Of a DNA stretch of 64,000 bases, positions 1 to 8,251 are shown piece after piece. The first letter of the stretch is position 1; each line of letters begins with the position of its first letter. The notes beneath the pieces are model-generated. The model had not been told where the DNA came from, made no database searches, and saw only the letters and a list, made by a program, of their open reading frames with translations. The translations under genes were made by a program, and so were the position numbers. Origin of the DNA: Myxococcales bacterium (lineage in GTDB: Bacteria; Myxococcota_A; Polyangia; Polyangiales; DASUME01); contig JASGJH010000001.1 of NCBI GenBank assembly GCA_047601445.1, positions 8,544,001 through 8,608,000 on the forward strand. Reading direction: 5' to 3'.

Positions 1-471
1 GTCCGCAAGAGTCGCCTGGCTGGGCGTCCTGGCCTCGAGGTGGTGGCGCAGTTCGAGACGATCATCCCGGATACCAGCGCCGAGATGACGTGGGCGCCCA
101 CCGGGCGGCTCTTCGAGATGTACCTTGCCCGCACAGTGCCACTGCGTATCAAGCAGCACATCCGTCCTTTCGTGGCGGAGCTCTGCCGACGTGCGGGACT
201 GGAGCTCGAGCGCGACAAGGAAGACTTGGTGTTCGCCATCCATCCGGGAGGTCCCAAGATCCTCGATCACATCAAGCAAGAGCTGGGCATCACCGAGCAG
301 CAGATGCACTGGAGTCGCGAGGTGCTCAACGAGCTCGGGAATATGTCGTCCTCCACGATTCCTCACATTTGGAGTCGCATGCTGGAGAGCACGGAGGTGG
401 GAACACACGTAGTCAGCATGGCGTTTGGCCCGGGTCTCACGGCCACCGGTCTCGTGCTGAGAAGGGTCTAG
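1..471 (+). CDS. Type III polyketide synthase (chalcone/stilbene synthase family), C-terminal part, truncated by window edge
   Basis: FAIHPGGPKIL (catalytic His), GNMSSSTI (catalytic Asn), AFGPGLT; frame is open back to base 1. Confidence 0.9.
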   Translation, partial: VRKSRLAGRPGLEVVAQFETIIPDTSAEMTWAPTGRLFEMYLARTVPLRIKQHIRPFVAELCRRAGLELERDKEDLVFAIHPGGPKILDHIKQELGITEQQMHWSREVLNELGNMSSSTIPHIWSRMLESTEVGTHVVSMAFGPGLTATGLVLRRV

Positions 472-473
472 TC

Positions 474-1442
474 ATGGCGCAAAACGTCGCACATTTCGAA
501 TACAACGGAAAACTCGGTTGGGGCTTGGTCTCGGAGGAATTCATCCAGCCCTTTCCCGAATCGTGGGGCTCCACCACGGCCGAAATCATCGCCCACAAGG
601 CTGAAATCCGTGCGCTCGCTGCGTCGCCCGGGAAGGCGTGGGGCGAAAGCATCGCGCTCGAGAGCGTGAACCTACTAAGCCCGATCACGACGCCCTGCCG
701 CATCTACTGCCAGGGCATGAACTACCGATCGCACCTCGAGAGCGCAAACGTCTCGACCAAGGACCGCGGATTCAACACGTTCTTCACCAAGTCCTCGGCA
801 TCCGTCACGGGGCCACGCGGGTCCATCGTGCGCCCGGCGCACGTCCAGCTACTCGACTACGAGCTCGAGCTCGGCCTCGTCATCGGTCGGGAAGTTCGCT
901 CCGAGCAGACGGTCTCGGAGCAAGGGTTGAGTGACGTCGTCGCTGGGTTGGTCATCGGCAACGATGTGTCGGCTCGCTGTGTTCAGCTCACGCAGGTGCA
1001 GTTCTTCAAGGGTAAGAGCTATCGCTCGTTCTGCCCGCTCGGCCCGTATCTCTGCCTGCTCGATGCGGACGAGTATCACTACATCGACAAGCTCGATCTG
1101 CATCTGCGGGTCAACGGCGCGACGCGTCAGAGTGACACGACCGCCAACATGATCTTCAAGCCCGCCGAGACGCTCACCGAGCTGACTCAGTTCGCCGATC
1201 TGCACGTCGGCGACGTGGTGCTCACGGGGACGCCAGGCGGTTGCGCGGTGAAGGCGCCGACCAACAAGGCGCTTCTGTTGGCGGCGAAGCTCATGCCGGA
1301 GGCCATGAAGTGGCGCGTCTTCGTGAAGAAGCAGCTCGCCATTGAAGAGTACTTGCGCCATGGGGACGTCGTGCGCGCGAGCATCGTGAGCAAGGACCGC
1401 CGCATCGACCTCGGCGAGCAGATTCATCAGGTGATGGCCTGA
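474..1442 (+). CDS. Fumarylacetoacetate hydrolase (FAH) family protein
   Basis: ATG 2 nt after PKS stop; CQGMNY, FFTK, DYELEL, NDVSAR, KGKS, TGTPGG motifs. Confidence 0.92.
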   Translation: MAQNVAHFEYNGKLGWGLVSEEFIQPFPESWGSTTAEIIAHKAEIRALAASPGKAWGESIALESVNLLSPITTPCRIYCQGMNYRSHLESANVSTKDRGFNTFFTKSSASVTGPRGSIVRPAHVQLLDYELELGLVIGREVRSEQTVSEQGLSDVVAGLVIGNDVSARCVQLTQVQFFKGKSYRSFCPLGPYLCLLDADEYHYIDKLDLHLRVNGATRQSDTTANMIFKPAETLTELTQFADLHVGDVVLTGTPGGCAVKAPTNKALLLAAKLMPEAMKWRVFVKKQLAIEEYLRHGDVVRASIVSKDRRIDLGEQIHQVMA

Positions 1443-1459
1443 TCCGGGAAGGAGATCGC

Positions 1460-2533
1460 ATGCTGCAGAAAGTCATCCCGTTGAGCGAGCCCAAAGAGGC
1501 AGCGCTCGCGCACGCCACGCGCCTGGTCTACCTGGTGTTCGAGCGTCGAAACCTCGGAGCGCAACAGACCTTCATGGAGGAGTTTGGACTCACGACCCTG
1601 TCGCAGCAGGGACGTACCCTCTACATGGGAGCCCAAGCCGAGTCGTTCTACTGCTACCGCTGTGAGGAGGGGGCGCGGGATGGCTTGCTCGGCTTCGGCC
1701 TCGCCGTCTCGGAGCGCGCCGAGCTCGAGCGTCTCGCGCAGCGCTTCGGGGTTGCGAGCGAGTTCCATGCATGGCCACTTCCGCATGAGAAGATCGTGCT
1801 ACGCGACCCCAACGGGTTGGCCATCGAGGTGCTTTGGATGGCGGGTGACGTTGACCCCAGTCGGGACGCCCGCCCAGCCGCGAGTCCGCGCGGCCGTGGT
1901 GAGGAGATTCGCTTGGTGTCGCGCCCGGCACGGATCCACAAGCTAGGTCACTTGGTGCTCGACGTCTTCCGGTTTCAGGAATCCGTGGCCTGGTATCGGG
2001 AGCTGTTCGGGATGTTGCCGACCGATGTGTTGTGCCTGGACAGCGGCGAGCCAGTCGTGGCGTTCATGCGCTTCGACCGCGGCAGCGCCCTCACCGAGCA
2101 TCACAGCCTGGTCATCAGCTCGAACATTCAGGTCGGCTGCAACCACAGCGCCTACGAGGTTTCCAGCCTGGACGACATGGCGATGGGCCAGCAGGTTCTG
2201 CAGGCGCGTCGTCGTCGGCATGTCTGGGGCATTGGTCGCCACTTGCTCGGCAGTCAGCTCTTCGACTATTGGCGTGATCCGGCGGGTGAAGTCGTCGAGC
2301 ACTACTTCGATAGCGACCGCTACGACGCATCGCGACCCGTCGAGTATCACCGCTTGTCGAGCAGTGGACTCTACCAATGGGGGCCGAACGTGCCGGCCGG
2401 ATTCGGTCTGCCCAAGCTCGACGCCCAGAAGCTGCAGCACCTGTTCAAAGCCGCTTTCGCAGGCGACCTGAAGCTCGGGCGCGTGCTGCGCATGAAGAAG
2501 CAAATGTCCGAACCCGCCAAGGCTTGGCTCTAG
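1460..2533 (+). CDS. Two-domain VOC family protein, extradiol ring-cleavage dioxygenase-like
   Basis: AAGGAG RBS; candidate metal ligands KLGHLVL (H), NHSAYEV (H), VEHYFD (E); WGIGRH and FDYWRDP motifs. Confidence 0.85.
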   Translation: MLQKVIPLSEPKEAALAHATRLVYLVFERRNLGAQQTFMEEFGLTTLSQQGRTLYMGAQAESFYCYRCEEGARDGLLGFGLAVSERAELERLAQRFGVASEFHAWPLPHEKIVLRDPNGLAIEVLWMAGDVDPSRDARPAASPRGRGEEIRLVSRPARIHKLGHLVLDVFRFQESVAWYRELFGMLPTDVLCLDSGEPVVAFMRFDRGSALTEHHSLVISSNIQVGCNHSAYEVSSLDDMAMGQQVLQARRRRHVWGIGRHLLGSQLFDYWRDPAGEVVEHYFDSDRYDASRPVEYHRLSSSGLYQWGPNVPAGFGLPKLDAQKLQHLFKAAFAGDLKLGRVLRMKKQMSEPAKAWL

Positions 2534-2543
2534 GAGCTTCCGT

Positions 2544-4241
2544 ATGAGGTCTCAGGAGACGATCGACGTAGCGATTGTTGGCGCGGGGCCCGTGGGCCTC
2601 ACGCTGTCGGCCAAGCTCGCTCAAATGGGCCTCAAGGTCGTGTGTTACGAGGAGAATCAGGCGCTCTACGCCTTCCCGAGAGCAGTCGGCCTCGACGACG
2701 AGTCACTGCGCGCCTTTCATGGACTGGGCATCGGCGAGCGGGAGCTCGACCCGTGCCTGATGAATTGTGCGGGCATCAAGTACTATGGCGAACATGGGCA
2801 GTTCCTGACCATGATCCACCCCAAGGAGCGGCCCTACGGGCACTTCAAGGGCGCGAGCTTCTACCAGCCATTTCTCGAGAATTTGCTGCTCCAGCGAGCG
2901 TGCGCGCTGGGGGCCAAGGTGCAGTTCGGAGCGCGCGTAGTCGGGCTCGAGCTCAACGGCGACCATGCGCTGCTGATGCTGCAAGGCGAGACGGGAGTTC
3001 GTCACCAAGTTGCGAGCTATGTCGTGGGTTGCGATGGATCTCGAAGCTTCGTTCGCAAAAATCTGCGGATCGGCTTCAAGGGGACGACTTTCGAGCAGCG
3101 TTGGTTGGTGGTGGACACGGCCAACGACGTGTGGCCGGAGCGCTACGCCGAGGTCTGGTGCTCGAGCGCGCGGCCGACCGTGACCATCCCGCGCCGGCAA
3201 GGCTTTCGGCGTTGGGAGTTCATGCTGAAGCCGGGCGAGGATGCTGCGGACTTCGACACGCTGGACAAGATTCGACCGCTCCTCGAACAGCGCGTGCCTG
3301 TCGATCGCATCGAGATTGAGCGCTTCAACGTCTACACGTTTCACTCGCGCGTGGCGGACAGCTATCGTCGCGGACGCGTGTTCTTGGCAGGCGATGCTGC
3401 CCACGTCATTCCGCCCTTCATGGCGCAGGGCATGGCCGCGGGCGTGCGCGATGCGGAGAACCTGGCTTGGAAGCTCGCCGGTGTGATCAAGGGCAGGCTG
3501 CGTGAGCAGGTGCTGGATTCTTACGAGACTGAGCGGCGACCTCACTTGTTGGCGATGGGCAAGCTGTCCGAGCGCGCGGGCGCCTTCATGATGCCGCAGA
3601 GCCGCTTGCGCTCATTGACCAAGGATTTCGTCGTGCGCGCCCTGCATCGTATCCCGGGAGTAGCGAGCGCCGTCGAGGAAGCGCGCATGCGGCCCGACCC
3701 AATTTACCGGGCGGGGCTGTTCTCACGCCAGCCGAGCGACACGTTCGCTGGAAGCATGTTCCCGCAACCGCTGGTGCGCGATACGGCCGGCGTCGACGGT
3801 CTGCTAGACCTCCACCTCGGCGCTGGCTTCTCATTGGTCTGCTATGGCGCCGCCGAACGCCCGCTCCTTGCAGCACTCCAGGAACGGCTCACTAGGCTTG
3901 GTTGTCGTGCGCTACAGATTGCGCCGCAGGGGTTGCACGTGGATCAGCGATTCAAGCGCTTGCCCGATGCGACGCTCGTTGAGGATCGTCATAACGCCAT
4001 CGGTGCGTGGCTGCGGGACCGCGAGGCGTCATGCTTCTTGCTGCGGCCCGATCGCTACGTCATCGCCAGCTTCTCGCTGTATGCGCAAAGCGAGCTCGTG
4101 GCGTGGTTAGATGGAGAGCTGTTGAATCCAGGGCGCGCCGAGCTTTCGCCGCCGCTCGAGCGCGCCGTGCGTGCGGGAAAGTCCCAACCCACAAGCCCCG
4201 GTAACGGCGCCGCGGGTGTGCGCCACACGGCTTCCGTCTGA
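2544..4241 (+). CDS. FAD-dependent aromatic monooxygenase, MhpA / 3-(3-hydroxyphenyl)propionate hydroxylase family
   Basis: GAGPVG, GCDGSRS, GDAAH..P...QG, RDAENLAWKL, C-terminal LRPDRY. Confidence 0.9.
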   Translation: MRSQETIDVAIVGAGPVGLTLSAKLAQMGLKVVCYEENQALYAFPRAVGLDDESLRAFHGLGIGERELDPCLMNCAGIKYYGEHGQFLTMIHPKERPYGHFKGASFYQPFLENLLLQRACALGAKVQFGARVVGLELNGDHALLMLQGETGVRHQVASYVVGCDGSRSFVRKNLRIGFKGTTFEQRWLVVDTANDVWPERYAEVWCSSARPTVTIPRRQGFRRWEFMLKPGEDAADFDTLDKIRPLLEQRVPVDRIEIERFNVYTFHSRVADSYRRGRVFLAGDAAHVIPPFMAQGMAAGVRDAENLAWKLAGVIKGRLREQVLDSYETERRPHLLAMGKLSERAGAFMMPQSRLRSLTKDFVVRALHRIPGVASAVEEARMRPDPIYRAGLFSRQPSDTFAGSMFPQPLVRDTAGVDGLLDLHLGAGFSLVCYGAAERPLLAALQERLTRLGCRALQIAPQGLHVDQRFKRLPDATLVEDRHNAIGAWLRDREASCFLLRPDRYVIASFSLYAQSELVAWLDGELLNPGRAELSPPLERAVRAGKSQPTSPGNGAAGVRHTASV

Positions 4242-6454: not shown

Positions 6455-6634
6455 CTATTTGCCGAGCGCCTCGCGGGTTGGGATCACCTTGCCATCGCGC
6501 AGGAACTGCACTTCGTCGGCCATGATCATGCGCACGCGCTCGCGCAGGCCGATCGCTTCGAATGCGCTGCGCGAGATGAGGTTGTAGCCGCCGCCGGCGC
6601 GCTTGAGGCCCACTTGGTCGTAGCGCCCAGTCAC
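6455..6634 (-). CDS. Small 59-aa hypothetical protein translationally coupled to amt
   Basis: GTG start overlaps the amt TGA (GTGA) with GAGGGG upstream; VTGRYDQVGLKRAGGGYNLISRSAFEAIGLRERVRMIMADEVQFLRDGKVIPTREALGK; GC3-rich codons. Confidence 0.7.
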   Translation of the reverse strand: MTGRYDQVGLKRAGGGYNLISRSAFEAIGLRERVRMIMADEVQFLRDGKVIPTREALGK

Positions 6635-8052
6635 GTATCGCCCCTCAGGAGCTGCAGCAGCTCGCCTTCGCTGAGGTCCGCGTCGCTCGGCTTGCTGATG
6701 ACTCCGCTGAGGTCGAAGCCCTCGGTCTCTTCGAGCGGTGAGACCCGCAGGCCCACGTAGTGGCGAATCAGGATGAAGAGCGGGATGGAGGTGCCGAGCA
6801 CCCAAATCGCGCACACGGTTAGACCCAGGGCCTGGGCGCCGATCTGATGCAGGCGATCGGTGTGCATCTCCGCGAGCGACTTGCTGCTCGCGAACAGGCC
6901 CGTGGCCAGCGTGCCCCAGAGGCCGCCCCCGAGGTGGACGGGAATGGCTCCCGCTGGGTCATCCAGACGAAAGCGCAGGAGGAGCTCTGCAACCAAGTTG
7001 GCGACGATGCCTGCGACGAAGCCGATCACCATCGCCGATGCGGGCGAGATGATCGAGCAACTCGCGGTCACGCTCACCAGGCCCGCCAGGATGCCATTCA
7101 GGAACTTCACGCTCAGCGCCCGTCGCTGTTGCCAAACCACGCAGTGCACGATGGCCCCTGCGGCGCCGAACGCACCGCCCAGGTTGGTGGTGATGATGAT
7201 CGGGCCTACCTTGTCGTTGACCGCCAGGGTGGAGCCTCCATTGAAGCCCCACCAACACAGCCAAAGCAGCAAGGTGGCGAAAGCGTTCCAGTGCAAGCCC
7301 ATGTTCGGTAGCTCGCGCGCGGTGCCGTCGGGCTTGAAGCGTCCGAGGCGAGGGCCCACCATGATCACGCCCACCAGCGAGACCCAGCCACCCACGGAGT
7401 GCACGACGGTGGAGCCAGCAAAGTCGTAGAATCCACGATCCGCGAGCAGCGCGGCGTTGTCATGGAAGAAGCTCTTGCCCCAAACCCAGTGACCGAGCAC
7501 CGGGTAGATCAGGATGGTGACCGCTGCGGACACCACGGCGTAGGCAGCGAACGAGGTGCGCTCGGCGAGGGCGCCCGACACGATGGTCGCCGCGGTCCCG
7601 GCGAATGCGAGCTGAAAGAGGAAGTGCACGTGCAGATCGAGGCCGCCGTAGTCTCGCGGCAGGGTGCCCTCCAGCATCGCGAAGTCCGTGCCGAATAGGC
7701 CGAGGTAGGAGTGGCCGAACATCACCCCCCAGCCGAGCAGGAAGAAGGCGCCTACCGAGATCACCCAGTCGACCACGTTCTTGAGCGCTGTGATGGTGGC
7801 GGCGCGCGGTTGCACCGAACCCACTTCCAGGCACAGGAAGCCGCACTGCATGAAGAACACCAGGCCCGCTGCGCACAACACCCACACCGAGTCCGCGGCG
7901 CTGCGAGAGGCGAGTTCCTCGGCGTAGCCTTGACTGGGCACGAGTAAGGTGAGGCTACCTACGAGCAGACTGCGCGCCAGGGCGACTCGCCCAGAACACT
8001 CAGGTTGTGAAAAGCCCTTCAAAATGCCGGGCGTCGGCGCGTGACAGACCAT
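6631..8052 (-). CDS. amtB: Ammonium transporter (Amt family); start uncertain
   Basis: FFMQCGF, FQLAFA, HWVWG, DFAGSTVVH, WGFNGGS, DDPAGAIPVH (twin His), LRVS..EE.EGFD tail. Confidence 0.95.
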   Translation of the reverse strand: MVCHAPTPGILKGFSQPECSGRVALARSLLVGSLTLLVPSQGYAEELASRSAADSVWVLCAAGLVFFMQCGFLCLEVGSVQPRAATITALKNVVDWVISVGAFFLLGWGVMFGHSYLGLFGTDFAMLEGTLPRDYGGLDLHVHFLFQLAFAGTAATIVSGALAERTSFAAYAVVSAAVTILIYPVLGHWVWGKSFFHDNAALLADRGFYDFAGSTVVHSVGGWVSLVGVIMVGPRLGRFKPDGTARELPNMGLHWNAFATLLLWLCWWGFNGGSTLAVNDKVGPIIITTNLGGAFGAAGAIVHCVVWQQRRALSVKFLNGILAGLVSVTASCSIISPASAMVIGFVAGIVANLVAELLLRFRLDDPAGAIPVHLGGGLWGTLATGLFASSKSLAEMHTDRLHQIGAQALGLTVCAIWVLGTSIPLFILIRHYVGLRVSPLEETEGFDLSGVISKPSDADLSEGELLQLLRGDT

Positions 8053-8251
8053 CACCGATGATCGAACGGTATCCGATCCGGGGCAGTCAAGAGTGAGTCA
8101 GGTCAGCCCATGCGAAGTAACCTTGGAAGCATGCCGGAAGCCTGAGTTTCAGGGAGTCTTTCAGTGATCTCAGGAGAGGAGACGTGTGCGCGGTGCGCGC
8201 CTCGACGCCGTTGCTCCCACCCCTGAAAGGAGGCCGCGTGTGCTGCCCGGT

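Follow-up and report, generated by a model that had tools for sequence, protein, structure and literature searches.

The 64,000-nucleotide window analysed here, from a Myxococcales bacterium (contig JASGJH010000001.1, positions 8,544,001 to 8,608,000 of the forward strand), opens with four genes that may form the core of a coupled pathway in which an aromatic polyketide is built, hydroxylated, and then ring-opened, a reading that we favor tentatively. The genes encode a type III polyketide synthase (PKS), a fumarylacetoacetate hydrolase (FAH)-superfamily enzyme, a vicinal oxygen chelate (VOC) protein of the extradiol dioxygenase type, and a FAD monooxygenase (FMO). Their open reading frames (ORFs) are consecutive on the + strand, with gaps of 2, 17, and 10 nucleotides, just as an earlier note made from the letters alone (hereafter the original prediction) had described, and the family assignments made in that note hold. 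The window belongs to a single 9.5-Mb contig of 66% GC, and the upstream sequence reveals that the PKS gene is complete and that genes for a fatty acyl-AMP ligase joined to an acyl carrier protein (FAAL-ACP) and a Rieske oxygenase lie ahead of it in the same orientation. The resulting unit has six genes over 8.35 kb, in the 5' to 3' order Rieske, FAAL-ACP, PKS, FAH, VOC, and FMO. The following features are considered, where L001 denotes the interval G000:C1:8529001-8549000 and an L001 position minus 15,000 gives the window position.

Window 1..471, + strand: 3' part of the type III PKS gene (Chal_sti_synt_C)
Window -716..471 (start 717 bases before the window; L001:14284-15471), + strand: whole type III PKS gene, 395 aa
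Window 474..1442, + strand: FAH-superfamily enzyme, 322 aa (FAA_hydrolase)
Window 1460..2533, + strand: two-domain VOC, type I extradiol-type dioxygenase, 357 aa (Glyoxalase; NCBIfam extradiol dioxygenase models)
Window 2544..4241, + strand: MhpA-like class A FAD monooxygenase, 565 aa (FAD_binding_3)
L001:12126 to about 14229, outside the window, + strand: FAAL-ACP (FAAL models and structures)
L001:10888-12075, outside the window, + strand: VanA/KshA-type Rieske oxygenase, motifs intact
L001:5466-10677, + strand: dienelactone hydrolase and resistance-nodulation-division (RND) adaptor and permease, possibly associated with the unit

The close spacing suggests that PKS, FAH, VOC, and FMO are co-transcribed. 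A consensus scan found no terminator-like site on the + strand from the start of the Rieske gene through the end of the FMO gene, and therefore none between PKS and FAH, where the original prediction had allowed that a terminator or promoter might intervene. The same scan returned no promoter-like site anywhere, such that it says little about promoters and an internal one is possible.

Enzyme families and predicted chemistry

The nearest characterized relative of the PKS is Azotobacter ArsC (E 1e-95), and the protein falls within the ArsB/ArsC family. Its structure model matches the Azotobacter ArsB/ArsC structures (PDB 3VS8 and 3VS9) with a TM score of 0.94 and 42% identity, and its catalytic triad, C173-H320-N353, is present and shows no variation in any of the 129 rows of the alignment. 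Residue W270 falls at the site by which 3VS8 (wild-type ArsC) and 3VS9 (a mutant) are distinguished, which is the switch position known as W281 in ArsB and G284 in ArsC. Across the 129 rows this column holds 72 Trp, 54 Leu, and 3 Gly, with Gly confined to the second copies in three Azotobacter-group loci whose first PKS copy has Trp; Trp is also carried by all seven close homologues displayed. The W281G change abolishes resorcinol synthesis by ArsB, and the G284W change confers it on ArsC (PMC6274091). Because W270 occupies this position, the best prediction for the PKS product, given that mutagenesis, is a 5-alkylresorcinol; a pyrone was considered and rejected on account of the same Trp.

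The supply of the starter unit can be approached in a similar manner. Both ArsB and ArsC take acyl-ACP, and ArsB-type enzymes can use acyl-coenzyme A (CoA) as well (PMC6274091). The adenylation enzyme encoded upstream of the PKS agrees with FAAL models and with FAAL structures, and its pairing with the PKS is supported by a GTDB beta-proteobacterial metagenome-assembled genome in which FAAL, ACP, and a related ArsB-type PKS are fused in one 1,081-aa ORF (L003:7931-11176) that adjoins an IS66 transposase. The unit is therefore like the ars-type operons of Azotobacter in its PKS subfamily, its resorcinol-switch Trp, and its acyl-ACP starter logic (PMC6274091), but those operons draw the starter from a type I fatty acid synthase (FAS)/PKS (compare L022 and L234). 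No ArsA-like type I FAS/PKS supplier stands in that place here, where the gene upstream of the PKS is FAAL-ACP.

Among the three remaining enzymes, the VOC protein has a weak Glyoxalase match in Pfam and matches NCBIfam extradiol dioxygenase models down to E 7e-13, and it scores below the curated BphC, HpaD, XylE, and HsaC equivalog cut-offs (best 48.6 bits versus 366). Its iron ligands H164, H229, and E280 and the second-shell residues H215, H261, and Y270 align with those of BphC (1HAN). All six, which are the catalytic residues of BphC-type extradiol dioxygenases, are present and invariant over 53 aligned rows. The FMO exceeds the cut-off of the NCBIfam subfamily PRK06183.1-3 (405.5 versus 390) and lies below equivalog cut-offs; it is 35% identical to Escherichia coli MhpA and has the FAD GD motif. 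Following that motif, the FMO and five of five relatives examined (P0255-P0260) carry M-A-Q-G, and the pattern-matching comparator loci carry x-G-Q-G or G-L-G.

The FAH enzyme has its metal-site residues E130, E132, and D164 together with K181. Its lid reads H87-L-E-S where the comparators have H-x-x-E (20 of 22) or H-x-x-D (2 of 22), and it has a Cys in the S-A-R-D motif at which 21 of 22 comparators carry Asp. The His-Glu lid dyad activates water in acylpyruvate hydrolysis (PMC8398924, PMC7115867), and E89 might substitute for the dyad Glu. With this altered dyad, simple hydrolysis, the role originally proposed for the enzyme, is less certain than was first assumed. Because the canonical His-x-x-Glu hydrolase spacing is absent, several end points of the pathway are conceivable.

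The trio had originally been regarded as normally catabolic and mhp-like. Its comparators are indeed catabolic, but the match to mhp is limited to the monooxygenase: BLAST comparison of the VOC and FAH proteins with MhpB, MhpC, and MhpD of E. coli returned no match. The mhp trio was for this reason rejected as a comparator, and the hcd, Mhq, and dnt systems fit instead, the combination of FMO, VOC, and FAH at the locus being that of an hcd/Mhq-type trio. The flavin hydroxylase, type I extradiol dioxygenase, and FAH-family enzyme of hcdABC from Pseudomonas mandelii 7HK4 open 3-(2,3,5-trihydroxyphenyl)propionate (PMC6222606), such that, by description, the same enzyme trio encoded in one operon acts on the same 2,3,5-trihydroxyphenyl-alkyl ring. 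As portrayed in that source, however, the hcd route is purely catabolic, serves a plant coumarin product, uses ipso-hydroxylation with a chain shift, and involves no PKS, whereas a PKS is present here. The Mhq route converts trihydroxytoluene to 2,4,6-trioxoheptanoate (PMC8571283), and the dnt route leads to pyruvate (PMC10602510). The mhqA, VOC, and FAH products of the YI23 locus are 28%, 31%, and 37% identical to the FMO, VOC, and FAH here. The orcinol lower pathway also opens a trihydroxytoluene-type ring and is catabolic. All three lower pathways thus share trihydroxytoluene ring opening with the proposed scheme, but they are catabolic, take small substrates, and have sequences distant from those of this trio.

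The gene anatomy, families, active-site residues, and restricted co-occurrence are observed, and each reaction in the pathway that can be assembled from these comparisons is a prediction. FAAL, whose family is established, would load a fatty acid onto its ACP, and the ArsB-type PKS would extend it with three malonyl units to give the 5-alkylresorcinol. By analogy with MhpA regiochemistry, the FMO would hydroxylate the carbon between side chain and hydroxyl to form a 2,3,5-trihydroxy-alkylbenzene. The VOC iron enzyme would then cut the ring beside the chain, as HcdB and the Mhq pathway suggest, to yield an alkyl 2,4,6-trioxo acid. In the least certain step, the FAH-family enzyme might decarboxylate or isomerize this acid, close it again into a 6-alkyl-4-pyrone or a 4-pyridone-2-carboxylate, or split it into pyruvate and a 3-oxo acid; ammonia chemically turns such ring-cleavage products into pyridones (PMC6222606). 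The Rieske enzyme probably oxidizes the ring or its chain, and export may fall to the RND pump encoded next to the unit. The coupled reading is supported because the predicted resorcinol, after MhpA-type hydroxylation, would present the very ring on which the characterized trios act, and the trio probably does act on the PKS product. The build-then-open idea of the original prediction gains from this substrate fit and from the resorcinol assignment, and its enzymatic steps keep the standing of predictions. The unit is neither an ars operon nor an mhp or luciferin system, and it resembles ArsB chemistry followed by hcd/Mhq chemistry.

Linkage of the synthase to the trio

The original prediction would have been refuted had such a trio never been linked to a PKS elsewhere, and homologues of PKS, VOC, and FMO do appear together, as judged by equal contig size, on three other contigs. 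The closest VOC homologues form three clusters at 57-59% identity (the next best is 42%), the closest PKS clusters stand at 67-70%, and the closest FMOs at 65-68%. Members of all three families lie on contigs of identical size: 64,681 bp (P0122, P0004, and P0255), 11,427 bp (P0245, P0002, and P0257), and 11,211 bp (P0123, P0003, and P0260). As background, equal contig size occurs in 1 of 13,340 VOC-PKS pairs among the remaining top matches. The PKS/VOC/FMO identities also co-vary, being about 67/58/64 between this genome and the three sets, about 76/67/68 between the 64,681-bp set and the two short sets, and 93/85/87 between the short sets. In the trees, a clade with support 1.0 unites the linked VOCs to the exclusion of others, and the linked FMOs together with P0258 form a clade as well (support 100, quick tree). 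The linkage is rare and not generally conserved, yet it is probably not a one-off, and on these sequence comparisons it appears to have been kept through 30-43% amino-acid divergence.

Trios without a PKS provide the contrasting case. A sample of 23 ordinary trio loci comprises 20 of 36 VOC matches (chosen among the top 24, some of which lie on short contigs) and three plasmid loci; FAH is found in 22 of them, FMO in 19, and PKS in none. A TetR gene lies within 5 kb in 21 of the 23 loci, whereas the same queries detect none within 5 kb of the trio here. A different, frameshifted TetR is located about 12 kb upstream of the VOC gene. FMO/VOC/FAH trios accompanied by a TetR gene are recurrent in the taxonomic order to which this genome belongs and are found on plasmids of proteobacteria too, in some cases next to an acyl-CoA synthetase gene (L155-L177).

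Searches across broader samples return few relatives. In the phylum sample, FMO matches at E<=1e-70 occur in 7 of 400 other genomes, all at <=39% identity. A metagenome scan with the VOC gives one weak match of 23 residues, and a viral scan with the PKS alignment gives none. The VOC was not found in five of five genomes carrying FAAL/ACP-linked or related PKS loci, a weak negative in that genome completeness is not given. The contig sizes of the Rieske homologues coincide with those of none of the three contigs, which is uninformative given the 50% clustering. The Rieske oxygenase family (P0263-P0266) is very small and private, with 44-55% identity, and stands sharply apart from other Rieske proteins. 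Long stems in the trees were considered as a sign of new function and rejected, since similar stems occur in other trio clades.

Genomic setting and neighboring genes

The cluster adjoins tRNA-Pro and a low-GC island, and its GC content of 63.7% is at the 5th percentile of the genome. Neither the VOC (0 of 9) nor an ArsB-like PKS was found in nine congeners (72-99% complete), the best PKS match being 34%; the cluster looks acquired. At the corresponding insertion site, one congener contig stops at the border and another is rearranged. A Gabija-like pair, GajA (split by a frameshift) and GajB, occupies L001:42-3842; it borders tRNA-Pro(TGG), which lies near L001:4118-4192, and marks one margin of the low-GC island of about 30 kb. 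A phage-defense role for the cluster itself was rejected, since PADLOC gave no meaningful match for five cluster proteins.

A frameshifted TetR-like gene (L001:4851-5410) lies ahead of the dienelactone hydrolase and RND genes, and a 210-nucleotide gap separates the RND genes from the Rieske gene, which has no reductase gene with it at the locus. Directly 3' of the RND stop codon, a 21-nucleotide unit with an internal hairpin is repeated twice in tandem (L001:10679-10720), with no further copy genome-wide at <=2 mismatches. A second, paralogous RND pair (60%/38%) is encoded at another place in this genome. On the other side of the trio, there is an ammonium transporter gene (window 6631-8055, - strand) that congener G005 lacks, although its corresponding stretch is otherwise collinear.

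Weighing the alternatives and implications

Several observations count against a coupled biosynthetic pathway. Among the best 80 of 283 GTDB loci of PKS relatives (40-48% identity; flanks up to 10 kb, often less), a FAAL is present in the flank in two, and FAH, VOC, or FMO in none. Co-location elsewhere is read from equal contig sizes, a measure that covers PKS, VOC, and FMO, and not gene order, distance, FAH, or FAAL, and the three contigs represent about two other lineages. The PKS tree has the same branching order as the others, and its support for the PKS-linked group is weak (0.33). Within the closest clusters, contigs lacking a partner account for three of six PKS, one of four VOC, and two of five FMO members; the unpartnered PKS contigs measure 3,409, 3,991, and 17,361 bp, and fragmentation is possibly the cause. 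The next PKS tier (56-62%; P0124-P0127 and P0246) and FMO P0258 likewise have no contig partner. The FAH lid change is known from this one FAH sequence. The usual substrates of the MhpA family are small acids, and it is a prediction that a member would accept a resorcinol with a long chain; the build-then-open scheme as a whole draws on sequence and family chemistry. Finally, the ACP of FAAL-ACP is frameshifted as assembled, just past the serine motif, and frame splits also affect the TetR and GajA genes nearby. Against a background of three to five frame junctions in 188 orthologues compared with a congener, the chance that one junction falls within the 8.35-kb cluster is 0.11-0.18, and three in the wider stretch of about 15-19 kb are unlikely (0.002-0.006). 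Local assembly error and real decay are both possible; the PKS, FAH, VOC, and FMO frames are open and full-length.

The substrate fit and linkage that recommend a biosynthetic route apply equally if the alkylresorcinol, or a hydroxylated or quinone form of it, is the real product and the trio serves turnover or self-protection, which we regard as rather unlikely. The trio would then yield pyruvate and a 3-oxo or plain fatty acid that FAAL-ACP could reload, much as the FAH-family enzyme CPH recycles caffeylpyruvate in the fungal caffeic acid cycle (PMC6294908), and the intact metal ligands of the FAH are in keeping with this. There is precedent in the phl (2,4-diacetylphloroglucinol) cluster, where a type III PKS cluster carries PhlG, an enzyme that degrades the product of its own PhlD cluster (PMC8003664). 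As described there, however, PhlG takes off an acetyl group without opening the ring and is controlled by a repressor of its own, PhlH, whereas this trio is of the ring-opening type and follows the PKS by 2 nucleotides with no TetR within 5 kb, so the product would be destroyed as it was made. The altered dyad spacing of the FAH also argues against turnover. A biosynthetic route is favored over it because the operon is tight and has no separate repressor, the FAH is altered, and an efflux pump is adjacent. A somewhat smaller chance is assigned to two unrelated modules sharing one island, in which an ordinary catabolic trio, directed at some external phenolic that resembles orcinol, hydroxycoumarin, or methylhydroquinone, came to lie behind an alkylresorcinol lipid cassette. 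The island setting and the failure to find the cluster in nine congeners would suit such a juxtaposition, as would the fact that trios are common without a PKS. Similarly, in a same-order sample of 400 other genomes, VOC is found in 30 and PKS in 36 (one being the unpublished G396, which enters no other result), and both occur in one genome, on separate contigs, versus 2.7 expected. The apparent persistence of the linkage with matching identity patterns speaks against chance neighbors, as do the tight spacing, the missing TetR, and the private clades of VOC and FMO.

Tailoring could also end at the hydroxylated ring, if PKS and FMO (perhaps with the Rieske enzyme) made an alkyl-hydroxyquinol or quinone lipid while VOC and FAH were minor or decaying. 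The pairing of a type III PKS with a flavin hydroxylase is known from srs-type clusters. Alkylquinones are mentioned in the consulted part of a myxobacterial cluster survey (PMC12766979), and the two active-site departures in FAH and the excess of frameshifts point the same way. We nevertheless consider this outcome improbable, given that all six VOC catalytic residues are intact and VOC homologues are retained on the linked contigs. The original prediction had further drawn a loose parallel with the fungal luciferin cycle. The order of enzyme types is all that agrees with it (adenylation, carrier, and condensing enzymes, then flavin hydroxylase, oxygenase, and FAH-family recycling; PMC6294908), but that cycle is described as having a pyrone product and a luciferase, in contrast to the resorcinol-type PKS and iron extradiol-type VOC found here. 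The cluster genes all belong to other families, its oxygenases are VOC and Rieske proteins with no Luz-type luciferase among them (no search of the genome with Luz sequences was made), and no emitter is evident in a product that is predicted to be saturated and alkyl. The fungal cycle also uses a PKS of another class. The parallel is an analogy only, nothing supports luminescence, and a light-emitting cycle is extremely improbable.

In the open-licence literature searched, a scope that places most subscription journals outside, the combination of an ArsB-type synthase with an hcd/Mhq-like trio was not found, nor was it found in the consulted part of the myxobacterial cluster survey (PMC12766979). 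Each enzyme family is known, and it is their union that is rare and, judging by the homologous contigs, apparently conserved. It is conceivable, though we offer the idea with caution, that a catabolic trio was captured as a tailoring arm for alkylresorcinols, or forms a closed acyl-recycling loop, with the acid that leaves FAH being taken up again by FAAL-ACP. If the proposed coupling is true, catabolic ring cleavage would have been recruited into type III polyketide biosynthesis, and the products, alkyl trioxo-acids or pyrone- or pyridone-carboxylates, would constitute an undescribed class. Genome-mining tools would file this predicted chemistry as a plain alkylresorcinol cluster, and the cluster would be a source of candidate enzymes for opening long-chain alkylresorcinols.

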